From assembly GCF_004010195.1 (NCBI RefSeq), contig NC_057719.1:33081671-33101670 (forward strand): a stretch of DNA of 20,000 nt. Direction: 5' to 3'. The stretch is from Chiloscyllium plagiosum. Its lineage: Eukaryota. How positions within the stretch are numbered: position 1 is the stretch's first letter; every line of letters starts with the position of its first letter. The notes under the pieces are model-generated. The model worked only from the letters and a program-made list of their open reading frames with translations. It was not told the origin of the DNA and searched no databases. The translations under genes were made by a program, and so were the position numbers. This document shows, piece by piece, positions 4,439-18,540 of this stretch.

Positions 4439-5755
4439 TCAATGAACAAATCTAATTCCTGCTTTTGTGAATAAAATGCCGTTTTTAAAAAATGTTAAAT
4501 TTATTTAAAGCCTTAATTATTGAAATCACTAGTGCTTAAAAGGGGAGAAACTCTTAAAAATTAAAAAAGAAAACATTTAAGGGTGTGGAAAATTTATGAA
4601 TGTACAACAGAATCAGAATTATGATTTTATCCAAGTGTTTTCTGATATATGTGCAAAATATTGGAAATGATAATGACAAAAGCTGATGTGAAATGTCTGT
4701 CAGAAACATAACAATGGTAAGACAAGTGAGAAAAACAGAAAGGCATGTCTGCACAGACATTATGAATTTAAAGTTATTATGGACAGACTGTTCATTACAC
4801 TAATAGATTAGCATAACAACAAATGAATTAATCAATACTATTTTAAAAAATGGTTTGTGCTAATTCATCAAAATACAGGATGACTCCAAATTTCCAAAGG
4901 CATTAGAATGAATATCGAGGGATTTTCACTCAAGTCAGGAGCACGAACGTCAAGAAAATTCCTGACTCCACAAACCCAACCAGGGAGAAAATGGTTGGAA
5001 CATCTATCAAATGTTCTTAAAAGAAGTAGATGCAAAAAAAAAGGGGCATTGGTCAAAATGTTCCAGAAAATACTGGATTCTGGGAGCATTCCAGCATCAA
5101 TGAACAAATCTAATTCCTGCTTTTGTGAATAAAATGCCGTTTTTAAAAAATGTTAAATTTATTTAAAGCCTTAATTATTGAAATCACTAGTGCTTAAAAG
5201 GGGGGAAGCTCTTAAAAATTAAAAAAGAAAACATTTAAGGGTTGTGAAAAATTTGTGAATGTACAACAGAATCAGAATTATGAATTTATCCAAGTGTTTT
5301 CTGATATATGTGCAAAATATTGGAAATGATAATGACAAAAGCTGATGTGAAATGTCTGTCAGAAACATAACAATGGTAAGACAAGTGAGAAAAACAGAAA
5401 AGCATGTCTGCACAGACATTATGAATTTAAAGTTATTATGGACAGACTGTTAATTACACTAATAGATTAGCATAACAACAAATGAATTAATCAATACTAT
5501 TTTAAAAAATCGTTTGTGCTAATTCATCAAAATACAGGATGACCCCAATTTTCCAAAGGCATTAGAATGAATATTGAGGGATTTTCACTCAAGTCAGGAG
5601 CACAAACGTCAAGAAAATTCCTGACTCCACAAACCCAACCAGGGAGAAAATGGTTGGAACATCTATCAAATGTTCTTAAAAGAAGTAGATGCAAAAAAAA
5701 GGGGGCATTGGTCAAAATGTTCCAGAAAATACTGGATTCTGGGAGCATTCCAGCA
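4439..5755 (+). repeat. Direct tandem duplication, units 4439-5096 and 5097-5755
   Basis: Both units start TCAATGAACAAATCTAATTCC and end GGGAGCATTCCAGCA. About 13 substitutions and 1 indel by manual count (~98% identity). Confidence 0.97.
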
Positions 5756-5945: not shown

Positions 5946-6460
5946 TTTGTCTTCCACTCTCCCAAAGGAGTCCCTGCACCTAGTCAAAGGACACCCTATA
6001 TATCCAACTAGGCCCCAGACTTATCCTTTGCCTCTTCAAGAAACTTCAATACATTTAAACACATTGAAAAGTATAAAGGAGAATGGAAGAATTAAGTGCC
6101 CTTTGGGATTATTAAGAGCAGACATGGATAAATTCATTGAAACTGTAATGTTCATTATAACTGTCAAAGGTTTCAATCTCCTGCCCTTTAATTTAAAAAA
6201 AAGTCATGTCTTAGAATATCATTAATGCAAATTGTATCTACTGGAAGGCAGCTGTCTCTGTATAAAACACATGTCCAAAATATGACCTGCCTTCAATCTC
6301 CTCAATGTCATGGTAGATGCTGGATACAGGAGCACTATTTTGGCCATATCAGAAGTCTCCTCCCTGTGAAAATTCAGGTTTATATTTTATACCCACTTTT
6401 TGTATTTGTGAAAATGTTTGTTGCTTCATTAATTTTCTGGTTAGAGACAGATAATGAGGA

Positions 6461-7130
6461 GAGTCTAGATTAGACCTGCACATCCCCCAATGTAATTGAT
6501 TGTATCCATTGCTCCCAATGTGGTATCCTTTACATTGAGAAGGCTAGACGCCTTCTCACTGAGTTCGTTAGGGATCATCTCCAGGACACCAGCACCAATC
6601 AACCCAACTGCCCAACATTTCAACTCCCTCTCCCAATCTGCCAAGGACATGCAGGTCTTGGGCCTCCTCCACCGCCACTCCCTCACCACACGATGCCTGG
6701 AGGAAGAAAGCCTCATCTTCTGCCTCGGAACCCTTCAGCCACAGGGCATCAATGTGGACTTCACCAGTTTCCTCATTTCCCCTCCCCCCACCTTACCCCA
6801 GCTCCAACCTTCCAGCTCAGCACCATCCTCATGACCTGTCCTACCTGCCAATCTTCCTTCCCACCTTTCCACTCCAACCTCCTCTCTGACCTATTACCTT
6901 CATCCCCACCTCAATCCACCTATTGTACTCTTGGCTACCTTCTGCCCAGCCCCACCCCGCTCCCGTTTATCTCTCCACCCCGGAGGCTCCCTGCCTTCAT
7001 TCCTGATGAGGGGCTTTTGCCCAAAATGTCGATTTTCCTGTTCGTCGGATGCTGCCTGACCTGCTGTGCTTTTCCAGCACCACTGTAATCTAGACTCTGA
7101 TCTCCAGCATCTGCAGTCCTCACTTTTGCC
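6461..7130 (+). mobile_element. 5'-truncated Penelope-like element (GIY-YIG end + 3' terminal repeat)
   Basis: CTSPNVIDCIHCSQCGILYI and AQHFNSLSQS..EEESLIFCLGTLQPQGINVDF. 14 bp TSD ACAGATAATGAGGA at 6447-6460 and 7131-7144. Confidence 0.93.
6999..7034 (+). ncRNA. Degenerate minimal hammerhead ribozyme motif
   Basis: CTGATGA (7003-7009) G GGGC TTTT GCCC AAAA TGTC. The GAAA box is mutated to AAAA, so it is likely inactive. Confidence 0.65.
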
Positions 7131-8479
7131 ACAGATAATGAGGATACCATAGTTTCTATTTTTATTATAAAATAAACTTATGTTAGATCTTCAACATGGT
7201 AAAATTATGTTAAGTATATGTCTTGTATCAACACAGAAGCCTAGCATCAAGAGCCTGCAGAATGAAGACTGTAGTCACATATATTAAAAATGCAGCAAAT
7301 AGTTTTTTTCAATCTGAGGCAATGTCTCAGCAAATTATCAAGACACACTCTTTTACCACTATAGGATGTGGTGTGTAGCTTCCATGCCAATTACACAATT
7401 GGCAGGAGGGTAAAAAGCATGAGTGTGGAATTTTACAAATGCTGAATTGTAGATTGGAATCCCTGCAAATTATATGTGATGATTCAGCCTCTTTGCAGTT
7501 GATGAAGTGCCTGCCACCAAACAATGCCTGACAAGGCAATACGGAGAAATCAAAGTTTGCCTTCATCTGGTCCTGGTACTACTTTGCGAAAAAATCAGTA
7601 ATCTAAAGAAGATTTGCACAGCTCATTCAGTCATTTCCACGCTGTAATGTAGAGGAATATGTGCAGAGCGAATAATGTTTCTGAGTTACAATAGTCATTA
7701 ACTACTGTTCAAAATGTTCTATTTAATGGAATCTATTGAACACCATACAAAATAGACTTTCAGCCACAATGCTAAAAGGTTTTATCATAAAATTGGGAAG
7801 TAAAAATAACAGGGGTTGATTCAGGCAAGTCAGCTAACACAACGGAGTGTATCCTTCTGAGAACGAGCTCCAACTGGTATCTCAATGTCATGTTGCAACT
7901 TTCATTGCAACTGAGCCCGTGACATCTGATGCAGGAGCACCAGCACAGCATGAAAGAAAATATTTTATTTTCCCGCTCAGTCTTCATCACCATCAAAAAT
8001 ACACAGAAGCATCACATATTAATTGCACAACCTACATCAATATGCCACAGAAAGACTGCAAATTCTATTGAGCGAAGGGAAACCCAAAGTAAAAATAGTT
8101 CTGGATGTTGATAACTGATGATCAGCTTGATATATTGCAAGCTGATTAATTAAACTGACAAAAACTTTATCAAGATCACATCAGTAGGCTTAGGACAATC
8201 TAAATTCATAGCAATCACTTGCATTACATTAACTGCTGTGCTTGCAGCTCATTGGTATATACATTTTAGATTAAGATTAAAACATTGGGTATAAATTGCA
8301 AGACAAAAATGCAAGAAATCTCACAGCACTTCAAGCAAATTTGTGAAAAATATAATTTCCCTTTGTGTTTCTTCTGATGTGTTACTTTAAAATTATCAAA
8401 GGGCACAAACTATCCACAGAAAAATGCTTAATTTGACAAATAGTTCCTGACAGTGTTTAGCAAACTGCTATATCATGAA

Positions 8480-10065: not shown

Positions 10066-10767
10066 ACATTTGGTTTGAAAATTGAAACACTCTTGACCAT
10101 CTCCACCTCAGCACCATTGATGTTGCTCATTGAAGAATTATATATGGTCTCAGACTGAAGTAATTATCAAATATTTTAAAAACTTTATCACAAAACTTTA
10201 TCTTAAATATATATTTATTTTTATATTCTGGCGTCACCTAAGGACCTGTCTAACTAAAAATGATAGAGGATAAGCCACTATAGAGTTTTAAGAAGAGACA
10301 CTTGTCTTACATAACAAGGTGCAGTTAATTTCATAAAGCTATAGGTAGAATTAACATCAACTAGTTATGCATTATACAATTATCAGGAGTTAAATATGTT
10401 ATATATGTTTTATTCAAGACATAGTACAAAATGAACTGTTCCTCTACGAAACATAATCAGATCAGATGGTGTTCATTATAGCTTAGCACTAATTCTCTCA
10501 CATCCATTAACTTAAACAACAAAGAAGAAAGATAAATAGTAGGATATGTTGATAGGGTTAGAGAGGAATTATCTATTTCTGAACTGTGACTTCTACATAT
10601 TTATATGCAGCCGTATAAGGTATACTTGTTTTATGATAAATTCCAAGATTTAACACTGAATTTAATTCCGTGGGTAAAAACAATGACTGCAGATGCTAAA
10701 AACCAGAGTCTAGATTAGAGTAGTGCTGGAAAAGCACAGCAGTTCAGGCAGCATTCGAGGAGCAGTA

Positions 10768-10804
10768 AAATCGACATTTCGAGCAAAAGCCCTTCATCAG
10801 GAAT
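10768..10804 (-). ncRNA. Minimal hammerhead ribozyme motif
   Basis: Minus strand: ATTC CTGATGA A GGGC TTTT GCTC GAAA TGTC GATTT. Core boxes intact. Confidence 0.72.
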
Positions 10805-10855
10805 ACAGGTAGAGAGCTTGAAGGGTGCAGAGATAATTGAGAGGAGGGTGACCGT

Positions 10856-11891
10856 CGCGTTGTTGTGGTTTGGCGGTGGATGAGTCCAATGACCTGCATA
10901 TCCTCGGTGGAGTGGGAGGGGGAGTTGAAATGTTGAGCCACTGGGCGATTTGGTTGATTGGTGCGGGTGTCCCAGAGATGTTCCCTAAAGCGCTCTGCTA
11001 GGAGGAGTCCAGTCTCCCCAATGTAGAGGAGTCCGCATCGGGAGCAACGGATACAACAAATGATATTGGTGGATGTGCAGATAAAATTTTGAGGGATGTG
11101 GAAGGCTCCTTTAGGGCCTTGGATGGAGGTGAGGGAGGAGGTGTGGGCGCAGGCTTTGCAATTCCTGCAGTGGCAGGGGAAGGTGCCAGGATGGGAGGGT
11201 GGGTTGTAGGGAGGCGTGGGCCTGACCAGGTAGTCATGGAGGGAACGGACTTTGCGGAAGGTGGAAAGGGGTGGGGAGGGAAATATATCCCTGGTGGTGG
11301 GGTCTGTTTGGAGGTGGCGGAAATGTCGGCGGATGATTTGGTTTATGCGAAGGTTGGTAGGGTGGAAGGTGAGCACCAGGGGCGTTCTGTCCTTATTACG
11401 GTGGGAGGGGTAGGATCTGAGGGCGGAGGTGCAGGATATGGACGAAATGCGTTGGAGGGCATTTTTAATCACGGGGGAAGGGTAATTGCGGTCTCTAAAG
11501 AAGGAGGCCATCTGATGTGTTCTGTGGAGGAACTGGTCCTCCTGGGAGCAGATACAGCGGAGGCGGAGGAATTTGGAATATGGGATGGCATTTTTGCAGG
11601 AGGTAGGGTGGGAAGAGGTGTAATCCAGGTAGCTGTGGGAGTCGGTGGGTTTGTAAAAAATGTCAGTGTCAAGTCGGTCGTCATTAATGGAGATGGAGAG
11701 GTCCAGGAAGGGGAGGGAAGTGTCAGAGATGGTCCAGGTAAATTTAAGGTCAGGGTGGAATGTGTTGGTGAAGTTGATGAATTGGTCAACCTCCTCGCGG
11801 GAGCGCGAGGTGCCACCAACGCAGTCATCAATGTAGCGGAGGAAGAGGTGGGGAGTGGTGCCTGTGTAATTACGGAAGATGGACTGTTCCA
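10856..11891 (-). pseudogene. Truncated PLE ORF: RT C-terminal half + Cys-rich linker + GIY-YIG endonuclease
   Basis: FLRYIDD, LPFLDL, IFYKPTDSHSYLDYTSSHP, linker FPCHCRNCKACAH, NIICCIRCSRCGLLYIGETG..ERFREH. About 345 codons without a stop, but lacking the N-terminus and native C-terminus. Confidence 0.92.
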
Positions 11892-12059
11892 ATTATCTAT
11901 TTTTCTATCAGTCAGGGCATCTGACTCAGGAAATATATTGCTAGCTGTAAGCTTTGAACATGAACGCGATTGAAGATGAATTAACAAGGTGTGCAAAGAA
12001 TAAACTTAAATTGTTTTAGATCTTAAACACTGAGGCAAAATGAATATTCAAAAACTCAA
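11886..12059 (-). repeat. Inverted copy of 12635-12808 (174 bp)
   Basis: Reverse complement aligns without gaps to 12635-12808 with 6 mismatches by manual count. Confidence 0.96.
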
Positions 12060-12999
12060 CTGATAATTGAACGTCGATTTTACTGCTCCTCAGACGCTGC
12101 CTGAACCACTGAATTTAATTCCAACAATTCTTCCCAGCTCATCCTTGGCTCCTCCAGTTCAGAAGTGAGGAAATATGGTCCCTCAAGGTAATCCAGTTAA
12201 TTCCACACAATTATATCTGGCTACTGTCAGAATTGCAGGTCAGATGTAGTTGAAAGCTTACATGATCCATGCTCAGCTTTTCCAAAACAAAAAACACTTT
12301 CATATTTTGCCCTTTTCTCTACCTTAAAATTAGCAGGAGACACACATAATCAAATAATTATTCATATAATCAATCATTTATCTCCTTTGATCTTGGTATT
12401 GAAGGGGGCAACATTGCTTATTATTCAATATATATTAATATCTTGCTTTTCTGTTCAGTCAAATCCACGTGGAGCAATCAGAGTGTTCCAAATGCCTGAA
12501 GATGGTGTCATTTGGAGAAAACTTCTGTACTAAAACTTATGTCCCATTTTGTTTTTTTACTCCAGTTGTATTAAAGCATATTCCTTCAGTGTCTTTTTGT
12601 TTGCTTCTACCAAACTTCCAGTTTCTGCAGAGCATTGAGTTTTTGAATATTCATTTTGCCTCAGTGTTTAAGTTCTAAAACAATTGAAGTTTTTTCTTTG
12701 CGCACCTTGTTAATTCATCTTCGATCGCGTTCATGTTCAAAGCTTACAGCTAGCAATATATTTCCTGAGTCACATGCCCTGACTGATAGAAAAATAGATA
12801 ATTGGAACCAATTAAATTACCATTTTAGAACTATAACGAAGTTGAATGATCGCTAAAAGTGCAGTTATCTCTGCCCTGTTACTTTGCTTCTTAATGTAAA
12901 TTTTGATCTATTTTATCTTTGTTTTCAAAAATTCCAAAAAGATACTAGATCACAAATATTTCCAAGCATTTGCTTCCTCAACACTATTGCTACTATAGA

Positions 13000-13198
13000 G
13001 AGAAAATGAGGTCTGCAGATGCTGGAGATCAGAGATGGAAATGTGTTGCTGGAAAAGCGCAGCAGGTCAGGCAGCATCTAGGGAACAGGAGAATCGACGT
13101 TTCGGGCATTTCTTGAAGAAGGGCTAATGCCCGAAACGTCGATTCTCCTGTTCCCTAGATGCTGCCTGACCTGCTGCGCTTTTCCAGCAACACATTTC
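13000..13198. mobile_element. Palindromic PLE terminal-repeat mini-insertion
   Basis: Perfect 75 bp inverted arms 13036-13110 and 13126-13200 with a 15 nt spacer. TSD CACTATTGCTACTATAGA at 12982-12999 and 13199-13216. Contains hammerhead variant TTGAAGA A GGGC TAAT GCCC GAAACGTC (C3 changed to U). Confidence 0.95.
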
Positions 13199-13439
13199 CA
13201 CTATTGCTACTATAGACAAGGTTGTAGTGTTGCCAAGGCTCTCCAACCAAAAGCAAAGGGAACCTATTCTCCTGGCAGTTTAAAGTTGAAAGTGCCCTTG
13301 CACTATACCCCTGACTACAGATCCAAGTGATTAGTTTGAATTATATACCTAATAATTGCTACAAATGCTGGCATGATGCTGCCAAAATACTCTTAAAGGC
13401 ATTTCGATTGGCAGACAATCTGTGTTAGTTTGCTGCAGG

Positions 13440-15371: not shown

Positions 15372-15692
15372 GAATGTCTTAGTGTTTTTGAATCTTACCT
15401 GTTCAAGCTTTCTCATGCCCCGTTCCAGCTCTCCTAAAACCATTCTTCAGTTTCCTTCTTCCTCTTGACTAGATGTTCCACACCCCTTGTCACCCAAGTT
15501 TCTTTCAACTTACTATCCCTTCCTTGCTTCAGTGGGACAACCTATCCAGCACTCTCAACAAGTGCTCCCTAAACAACTTCACATTTCTGTTGTGCATTCC
15601 CTGAGAATATCTGTTCCCAATTTAGGTGCCCCAGTTCCTGCCTAATAGCATTGTAATTCCCCACCCCCCCCATTTAAATGCTTTCCCATACT

Positions 15693-15843
15693 CTAGATTT
15701 GAGTGGTTCTGGAAAAGCACAGCAGGTCAGGCAGCATCCGAGGAGCAGGAATTCCTGATGAAGGGATTTTGCCTGAAACATTGATCTTCCTGCTTCTAAG
15801 ATAGACTTTAGTTTCCAGCATCTGCAGTCCTCATTTTTGCCTA
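15693..15843 (+). mobile_element. PLE terminal mini-insertion with inverted 5' piece and decayed hammerhead
   Basis: 12 bp TSD CTTTCCCATACT at 15681-15692 and 15844-15855. 15693-15750 is antisense to the terminus. Core reads CTGATGA AGGGATTTTGCCT GAAAC ATT. Confidence 0.9.
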
Positions 15844-18540
15844 CTTTCCCATACTGTCTGCACTTATCCTTCTCCATGAGTACAACAAAGGTCAGGGAGT
15901 TGTGATCACTATCATCAAAATACTCTCCCACCAAGCAATCTGACACCTGGTATGGTTCGTTGTCAAACACCAAATCCAATATGGCCTTCCCTCCAGTTGG
16001 CCTATCTATATATTGCCTGGACACACCTGACAAAAACTTCTCCAGACAAACTATTTGAACAAAGGAGGTTTCAATCAAGATTAGGGAAGTTAAAGTCACC
16101 CTGATAACAACCCTGTTACTTCTGCATATCTCCAAAATCTGCCTCCCAATCTGCTCCTCCATGTCTCTGTTGCTATAGAGGGGGCCTGTAGAAAACTCAA
16201 AATAAAGTGTCTGCTTCTTTCCTGTTTCTGACTTCCACCCATACTGACTCTGTAGGCAAACCCTTCTCGATGACCTCCCTGTTCTATTATCCTTGATTAG
16301 CAATGCCACTCCTTCACCTCTTTTACCTCCCTCCTTATTCCTTTTGAAACGTCTAAACCTTGGAACATCCAGCAACCATTCTTGCTCATGTGATATCCAA
16401 GTCTCTGTAATGGCCACAACATCATATTTCCAAGAACTGATCCTTGCTCTGCGTCTGTCATCTTTTTTTCCTGATACTTCTTACATTAAAATAGACAACT
16501 CAACTTATCATATTGACTGCCCCATCAAGTACCTATCCCTCCTCACAGACTCTCACAGACTTAGGCCGGTTGATTTTTTTTTGGCTCTTAGTGGGGTGTT
16601 TTAGCACCAGATCAGGTGCCTCTAACTCTGCCTGTGATGCGGGTGAAGTGTCAGACACATTAGCTCTCCTCTTGTGCCAAGAGCATCTCGTAAGAAATTC
16701 ATTTTCCTCTTCAAGCATCAAGACAGCCACATCCATCATATCTATCCCAGATTCCAAAGTATCTTCAATGATTGATGGAGAGAGAGAGAACCCATGGGTT
16801 CCAGAAAGACTCTTGAGGAACTCGGCACATTTTGACTGGACTGTTTGTGAAATTGTGGCTATCGTATGGTCCATGTGTTTGTTCAGGACCAATAGACCCA
16901 CCCAAACTTTATAGTTCACTAGACCTGATCTTCAATTGACCTTGCCTCTTACCCATGCTGGGCCGTTCTTATGGTTCCTACAAAACGTCATCCACTTCAG
17001 GAAATTACTCTGTCAATCAGCAGTATTGTGTCCTTGGCATTCCTGATGCTGCTTCATCACCATACCCACCCATCAAGTCTGGGAAGATCAGCTTTAACAC
17101 AGATCAAAGTCTCCTCCCTCATAAGCAACTCTGCTGGAGCTATGCATGTCACTGTAGGACGGGTGGTCCTATAATCAAATAGTAACTGGGACAGTTTCGT
17201 ATCTCGTGAAGCTGTAGACTGTTTCTTTAAGCCTGCCTTTAAAGTTTGGACTGCTCTTTCTGCCAGACCATTGGATGATGAATGGTATGGAGCTGTCCAT
17301 ATGGATCACAAACTATTTGATTTCAGGAAATACTCAACTTCCCTGCTAGTAAATGATGGCCCATTATCTGTGACCAATTCTTCTGGAGTCTGAGTACTAT
17401 AAAAGATGCACATAGTTTTTTCCATTGTTTGACGAATGAACTCCATGCACATCCAGTCACATTGAGCAGGCACCCACAATGACTGAGAACTTTATGCCCA
17501 TGAACTGACCTACAGAATCAACATGTAATGGAGTCCAAGATTTACCTGGCCATTCCTATGGATATGGGAGAGCTGCTGGCAGGAGTTTTTGTCCTTGTTG
17601 GCTCTCTGAGCATGCCCCACCAATTCAACTATGTCTGCATCCAATCTTGACCAAAGATATTAATTCATTTTGGAAACTCCTGAATGACCCAGATAAAATT
17701 CAGTCAGTAACTGGAGGTGGCCTTTCCTGTGGACAATTACTCTTGCGCCCCATGGTAATATATGCCATCCTGCAATGAAATCTGGTCTCTCCAGATCCAA
17801 AAAACATTTGTTTCAGTTTGATTAGGACCAGATCCTTTTGCATCCAAAGTCTGATATTGGAAGCTCTGACTAGAAGCATGTCCAGAAAATATAAAACTAT
17901 TATGGACTTGTGCAGTGGCGGTACCACCGGTGATGTCTCTGCCAGTGGGGGAATGGCTCAATGATTCGGCATTTGCTGCTTGGCCTCCCGGACAGTGTTC
18001 CAACTTGTAATTAGACACATATAGCATGAGACCCCATGGCTGAATTCAGTTTGAAGCTATGCGCAACACTGCCGTCTTCTCTTTAAGTCGACCTGGCAGG
18101 GCCCTTTGGTCCATTATTATTACAAATTGATTTCTGTAAAAATACATGTGGAACTTCCTGGGTCCAAATATGACCGCCAAACCGTCCTTCGCTATCTGGA
18201 CATATTTACACACAGCATTAGCCAAAATCTAGCATGCATTCGCTATTGTACATTCCTCTCCATTGGACCACCTATAAGATAATACTACCCTGGCACCATA
18301 TGGGGAGGCATTACATATCAATACCAGATCTCACATAGGATCATAACATGCCAACACCTTAGAGGATGATAGCTGTTTCTTCACGTCCTTATGAACTATG
18401 TCTGCAACCATTTCCAAGGTTTATCCTTCTTTAAGAGTTGATACAGAGGAGCCAGGATGGAGGCCAGGTTATGGATGAACTTTCAATAATAATTCACCAA
18501 TCCAAGGGAAGACCTAAGCTCCGGTACAGACTTGGGAGCT

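Follow-up and report, generated by a model that had tools for sequence, protein, structure and literature searches.

Local inverted capture of neighbouring host DNA at the arm junctions of head-to-head Penelope-like element insertions

Local inverted capture at the arm junctions of Penelope-like elements (PLEs) is real and recurrent, and the class, if tallied across the genome, would have more value than the locus through which we describe it here. That locus, the index insertion, lies in a 20,000-nt stretch of Chiloscyllium plagiosum DNA (the window), where a PLE bounded by target-site duplications (TSDs) holds between its two arms a 174-bp inverted copy of host DNA from beyond its right end; a second case was found at another locus, L197. 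The 16-bp TSDs (CACTGAATTTAATTCC, plus strand) occupy 10654-10669 and 12107-12122, are identical at 16/16 positions by sequence comparison and have no further occurrence within the window, which confirms the flanking duplications that the original prediction had placed around the PLE body. The main arm (10670-11889, minus strand, ~1.2 kb) is a 5'-truncated PLE that is 93% identical to its best other genomic copies; its 3' end, the long or 'tailed' terminus (offset 74), lies at 10670, its truncation point falls inside the reverse transcriptase (RT) domain, and compared with related copies it carries an internal deletion of ~230 nt at 10850/10851. The captured copy (11886-12059, minus strand) begins within a GTTC microhomology (11886-11889, plus strand) that is common to the element and the donor end in the alignment with relatives, and is followed by a 10-nt linker (12060-12069) and an inverted short arm (12070-12106, plus strand). 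This arm consists of 37 nt of terminal repeat, matches the element's own 10742-10778 at 33/37 positions, stops ~30 nt inside the usual untailed terminus and adjoins the right TSD directly. A linker and a PLE terminus had been foreseen here, and both are present with limits other than the 11 nt and 12071-12104 first assigned to them.

Pairwise alignment of 11886-12059 with the reverse complement of 12635-12808 gave 6/174 mismatches and no gaps, as had been reported from the sequence. The donor (plus strand) is unique host DNA that begins 512 bp past the right TSD, and the two copies are 575 bp apart. A genome search with 12600-12850 returned only the copy and the donor among the matches listed, a count to be read as a lower bound and equal to the two copies expected beforehand, and an all-against-all comparison of copy and donor with 120 other 10-kb stretches gave zero cover. 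Relatives run on into RT sequence at the point where the index insertion passes into captured DNA. Of the 29 closest element copies, 28 align in register there. Because most of them read GTTCTA or GCTCTA, the shared microhomology shrinks from the GTTCCA (11886-11891) of the original prediction to GTTC; GTTCCA was found among the 28 only in L062, which itself ends at this point. The two-place genome search, the RT continuation in relatives and the zero cover in 120 stretches rule out a dispersed repeat or a part of the element, and the genome search and the 120-stretch comparison support a local, non-repeat copy inside one TSD-bounded insertion.

The element itself is identified by an open reading frame (ORF) remnant on the minus strand (10870-11892) whose translation contains the end of the RT (FLRYIDD), a CX4CxxC linker motif (CHCRNCKAC) and a GIY-YIG endonuclease with CxxC before the YIG, placing RT motifs and a C-terminal endonuclease in one frame as in EN+ PLEs. 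The same remnant carries IICCIRCSRCGLLYIGET and downstream histidines, read by eye, which agree with the definition of EN+ PLEs in the accessible part of PMC8557442, and the family has the terminal pLTR, inverted 5'-truncated copy, one-sided tail and TSD of that group (65/110 surveyed insertions are head-to-head). The same excerpt gives a CX2-5CxxC motif in the RT-EN linker as a trait of Neptune and Nematis that is missing in Penelope and Poseidon. CHCRNCKAC in the index has this form, which on the translated sequence points to Neptune or Nematis over Penelope/Poseidon, and a Poseidon label was dropped for Neptune-type on that definition (PMC8557442, as excerpted). Pfam gave a GIY-YIG match to the window ORF (E 0.041, below cut-off) and an RVT_1 match to the longer copy L145 (E 1.7e-4, below cut-off), with no match to the window ORF at E<=0.001; a PDB search returned 0 matches for the window ORF and low-complexity matches only for L145. 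The genome holds thousands of first-look candidates for further copies. The terminal repeat contains a candidate hammerhead-like core (CTGATGA...GAAA..GTC; 10773-10800, minus strand), named for its likeness, judged by eye, to the hammerhead consensus; an Rfam scan gave no hammerhead match at E<=5 and no meaningful match of any kind. Short arms of head-to-head insertions tend to have their inner ends 51-65 nt upstream of the anchor, where this core starts (near TTCCTGATGA), and this cluster may mark the 5' end of the RNA or an RT stop. A relative, L062 / L158, is truncated almost at the RT position of the index; its last bases form a short perfect hairpin (CTGTTCCA-T-TGGAACAG), which may reflect a snap-back at the 5' junction.

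Four of the 24 public sequencing runs listed for the locus, which include no RNA run, were compared with positions 10300-12630 of the window. Over 11941-12051, run X4 has one contig that matches the copy with 0 differences and a separate one that matches the donor with 5. The element/copy junction is bridged at 11854-11970, again with 0 differences, by a contig of run X5 (organism A, from a study other than that of the best-matching runs), and in run X9 (organism B) a single ungapped contig covers 11886-12630 with 16 differences, passing through the copy, linker, arm, TSD and flank. Run X20 (organism C) holds both element ends beside their flanks, with 35 differences in 944 nt (~3.7%), and the insertion therefore predates the split from organism C. 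The donor contig of X20 breaks off exactly at 12808, an indirect hint of a fork at this breakpoint; a separate contig for the captured copy was absent from the matches listed for this run, of which 85% was covered. Neither an empty site nor an insertion allele without the 174-bp segment was seen in the four runs compared. Assembly gaps are frequent in these elements (N in 17/110 surveyed insertions) and would speak for a gap-filling error, a dispersed repeat or a piece of the element in place of a capture. We hold this explanation to be extremely unlikely, given the 6 mismatches between the copies, their presence at two places in the genome search and the RT sequence of relatives at the junction point, while the coexistence of both versions in X4 and the junctions bridged in X5 and X9 rule out a short-read gap-filling artefact.

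A single record of X9 (record 31, organism B) matches from exactly 11886 and continues to the left for 328 nt that match nowhere on the window. Such a contig would fit a secondary junction, with a capture or element that had once been longer, or a spacer that had flipped between the inverted copies in some lineage, and with GTTC as the mark of a later deletion. This history is very unlikely in our judgement, since organism C, although more distant, has a donor contig ending exactly at 12808, and since contig paths through inverted repeats can mislead.

The architecture of the index was placed in the context of its family by a survey of 172 stretches (1.52 Mb), with loci mostly picked by likeness to copies in the window and flanks covered to 3 kb or the locus edge. 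Testing of 472 termini yielded 117 TSD-bounded insertions (decoy TSD calls, 40/884), and 7 open-ended ones were set aside to leave 110 with element sequence at both inner ends and TSDs of 12-22 bp (mode 15). Because 65 of these 110 are head-to-head, the inverted arm is the normal second end of the element family; the original prediction had derived the inverted terminal piece from a switch back onto the element terminus, and the ordinary second end takes the place of that switch. Among the 65 head-to-head insertions, 57 combine a long (tailed) with a short terminus, 2 are short at both ends, none is long at both, and in 6, including the index, one inner end is odd. A long terminus is thus matched with a short one in 57/59 classifiable pairs. 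The single-arm insertions (n=45) divide into 26 long and 19 short, and under independent ends the absence of long-long pairs has P 6e-11, which suggests two RT start sites assigned one per strand. That the tail is one-sided is known qualitatively (PMC3846280 and PMC8557442, both as excerpted). For the Anolis PLE protein, the accessible text of PMC11167929 describes two RT start sites and the nicking and extension of both strands in vitro, with no strand difference in start sites, in contrast to the paired termini seen here. The pairing of long with short termini further constrains the integration mechanism.

The 65 arm junctions comprise 7 that are hidden by gaps, 47 that close within 7 nt, 8 with 8-99 nt and 3 with at least 100 nt between the arms. 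Of these last three, L108 contains a nested repeat and the index and L197 each contain a local copy. Leaving the index out, local copies occur at 1/57 readable junctions, at 1/64 when gapped junctions are counted (95% interval 0.04-8%) and in 1/109 insertions (95% interval 0.02-5%). No locally matching long insert was found at a non-junction position in the 110 insertions. For the gaps of 8-99 nt, no local match stood clearly above what the flanks of other loci gave in one screen, a control that a second screen lacked; the few stronger matches of short gaps in L144, L177, L183 and L190 are repeat-derived. Self-match screens produced 58 pairs and then 17 inverted pairs, from which we rejected L115 and L203 (match outside the TSDs), L134 (a satellite), L137 (a tandem duplicate), L143 and L167 (away from any 5' junction), L165 (29 bp at 86%) and the remaining candidates, which have no adjoining element. 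The survey of 5' junctions that the original prediction had called for accordingly gave one further case, L197, in ~1.5 Mb. As a separate observation, direct repeats of 70 and 46 bp were seen at L102:2200-2394 and L103:2882-3002; the L102 pair encloses a 55-nt element end and is possibly an unusually long target duplication.

The second case (L197:1811-3892; G000:C15) is an insertion with a 16-bp TSD, a 232-nt insert between the arms and an 867-N gap within the insertion, the last a caveat to its structure. Its insert is the reverse complement of DNA ~1.3-1.5 kb away (205/232 identical, one 16-nt gap), and the donor lies ~1.26 kb from the target site, on the left. This donor is an old low-copy repeat remnant for which the local copy is the best match by far (E 3e-81, against 1e-11 or worse on other contigs). 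The inverted arm has offset 69 and the main arm ends at the short terminus. Both copies are inverted, and each donor is found beyond whichever terminus is untailed or shorter (offsets in the index, 74 and 2); in both cases a 4-nt microhomology marks one junction (GTTC in the index; CAGG, on the body side, in L197) and a short stutter-like linker marks the other. The L197 linker, on the arm side, is built from three imperfect TGATG(C/T)T units similar to the beginning of the arm.

We consider the chances about even that the index is one head-to-head PLE insertion whose junction copy was made during integration by fold-back synthesis on the resected short-arm end. By this route the endonuclease would nick both strands 16 nt apart and both 3' ends would be extended on element RNA, the left into a cDNA of 1.2 kb or more from the tailed start site and the right into a 37-nt cDNA, so that the long cDNA would sit on the plus strand of the left end and the short cDNA on the minus strand of the right end. 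Resection of the right end by at least ~0.5 kb would leave the minus strand to the right of the TSD single-stranded. The short cDNA would be extended by ~10 nt, with stuttering or without a template, and its tip would then fold back on its own strand, prime near 12635 and copy 174 nt away from the break, and this copying from 12635 to 12808 in plus sense would read as the minus strand of the insertion. Base pairing of the new end, GAAC, with the GTTC that terminates the long cDNA, followed by fill-in and ligation, would complete the insertion with the TSD kept. Our guess for the copying enzyme is a host end-joining polymerase of the polymerase theta type; the RT of the element is a further candidate for this role. 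The resulting scar is dead and neutral.

The insert lies exactly between both arms in the index and in L197, and an inverted copy with its donor on the short-arm side fits the geometry of fold-back in cis (n=2). The original prediction had invoked a cDNA template switch to local DNA or RNA; the local origin of the copy stands, and its orientation and donor side are better fitted by fold-back from the short arm. Several observations sit poorly with fold-back: its loop would measure ~570 nt, compared with the small hairpins of LINE-1 inverted duplications; if the linker is read as a plus-sense copy of donor 12782-12808 made with slippage, synthesis from the long cDNA fits it instead; the copy and donor have diverged less than the age of the element would predict; the 328 nt to the left of 11886 in X9 are unexplained by it; and the contigs listed for X20 include no separate one for the copy. 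The linker has two other candidate templates, a 10-nt match at 10377 (decoy rate 11/560) and a remnant of CTGAT, the usual start of short arms. As the three fit equally well, the linker is uninformative on the direction of synthesis, and no priming homology could be demonstrated at the linker/donor junction.

Synthesis from the other side would have the long cDNA leave the element RNA at GTTC, prime on local plus-strand DNA (by duplex invasion or on a sister chromatid) or on nascent plus-sense RNA, copy 174 nt, stutter and join the short arm, perhaps with the element RT as the copier. The 4-nt microhomology at the body/donor junction would then be the start of priming and the linker would lie at the other end, an order that L197 repeats, and the linker can be likened to a slipped snap-back copy of the capture's own first bases. 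There are published parallels in LINE-1, for which excerpts describe the co-insertion of nearby pre-mRNA (PMC10191854) and the pairing of cDNA with nearby DNA (bioRxiv 2024.08.27.596794). We nevertheless regard such a jump as unlikely. It needs a plus strand removed by 5' resection of the right end, an intact duplex or RNA, of which there is no sign here; had the cDNA jumped to the strand exposed at the opposite end, the copy would be direct and not inverted; and microhomology is equally expected at the final joining.

The age of the copy bears on whether one event or two built the junction. Compared with the majority base among its relatives, the element has differences at 36/1072 non-CpG sites, and at this age, scaled to the base content of the copy, 9.2-9.7 non-CpG differences would be expected between copy and donor, against 4 observed (P 0.035-0.05); over all sites 6 were observed and 11 expected (P 0.074-0.078), and a separate Fisher test gave P 0.07. 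Because of the 4 differences against 9.2-9.7, the copy may be younger than the element or partly homogenised. A copy-donor divergence of about half the prediction would suit a history in two steps, in which a head-to-head insertion came first and then suffered an internal double-strand break, whose repair by fold-back or templated end joining replaced the old arm junction with the local copy. Any break there would yield the same fold-back geometry, and the unrelated-looking 230-nt deletion in the body may indicate that the insertion was remodelled after it arose. We find this history unlikely. The local copy lies at the arm junction in 2/2 cases and nowhere else in the 110 insertions, and the contig stop at 12808 in organism C hints at the same breakpoint. 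No short-spacer palindrome exists to draw a break: the complementary parts of the arms are >1.1 kb apart, and the arm junction is therefore not the tip of a fragile palindrome. The age gap itself is borderline, and could be explained by gene conversion between inverted copies 575 bp apart or, likewise, by differences from the true source element. The single integration event of the original prediction is somewhat likelier than several events on the junction position in the index and L197, with the low number of changes in the copy relative to the age of the element (P 0.035-0.078) a borderline argument against it.

What the index shows is a by-product already known from retrotransposon integration, here in a PLE and with a template farther away. 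In LINE-1, the accessible text of Nam et al. 2023 (PMC10191854) reports foldback inversions upstream of the target site in 3 cases (0.3%) and one more (0.1%) with a twin-priming inversion, spanning 52-220 bp, and bioRxiv 2024.12.14.628481 attributes LINE-1 inversions and duplications in inverted orientation to a resected reciprocal end that anneals to itself. Like the index, these rare LINE-1 events carry flanking DNA copied in inverted orientation on the 5' (reciprocal) side, in or beside the TSD, show short microhomology and are explained by resection with self-priming. They differ in being somatic, human and associated with small hairpins, whereas the index is a germline-fixed PLE insertion with a donor 512 bp from the TSD, and in the index the copy sits between two cDNA arms whose element coordinates overlap. 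LINE-1 templated insertions (22 cases in 3,598 insertions, typically <250 bp, template within 15 bp; bioRxiv 2024.08.27.596794, as excerpted) are alike in copying in a non-element template of <250 bp and duplicating genomic DNA, but their template typically lies within 15 bp, compared with 0.5 kb in the index and 1.3 kb in L197. Both groups share with the index an insert copied from unique nearby DNA within a TSD-bounded insertion; because the template here does not adjoin the target (512 bp in the index, ~1.26 kb in L197), the index is a variant and not a plain member of the LINE-1-type foldback and templated insertions.

Among PLEs, the head-to-head insertions in the accessible parts of PMC8557442, PMC3846280 and PMC11167929 resemble the index in the inverted terminal arm, the TSD and the tail at one end (30-40 bp in the papers), but those parts describe no local host DNA at the arm junction. 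In Adineta vaga, host DNA was captured between Penelope pLTRs within a TSD (Arkhipova et al., PMC3846280, as excerpted), and that case is like the index in having unrelated sequence between terminal repeats inside TSDs. The excerpt concerns a gene between direct pLTRs that moved in trans, whereas in the index a short neighbouring stretch was copied in place, inverted and with no sign of spread; with two copies only, 575 bp apart, there is no transduction of the Adineta type, in which host DNA is moved far or multiplied with the element. A full-text literature search, most subscription papers and supplements lying outside it, found no paper that describes inverted inserts copied from a local template in PLEs.

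According to PMC11167929, the final steps of PLE integration still await validation. The single locus is a neutral fossil, and its value is as one point in a countable class. Extrapolation from 6 head-to-head insertions in 20 arbitrary 10-kb stretches gives ~100,000 genome-wide. If 1/57 junctions holds a local copy, then the donor side, orientation and distance over hundreds of cases would indicate the end that undergoes resection, the length of that resection and the nature of the template, DNA or RNA. A broader and quite unlikely proposal is that PLEs integrate by a paired two-nick, two-cDNA reaction with a different start site for each strand (never two tailed ends), and that their own telomerase-like RT routinely leaves the RNA for chromosomal DNA up to kilobases away while closing the arms; if it were true, at 1-2% of ~100,000 head-to-head insertions, thousands of small inverted host duplications would have arisen in the lineage.

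The window contains further PLE insertions, namely a head-to-head insertion at 12982-13216 (18-bp TSD) in which 13036-13110 and 13126-13200 are the arms of a perfect 75-bp palindrome, one at 6460-7144 with a 14-bp TSD and a head-to-head one at 15686-15844 with a 12-bp TSD. At 4439-5755, 659 bp of low-copy DNA are present as a tandem duplication that is 98% identical.
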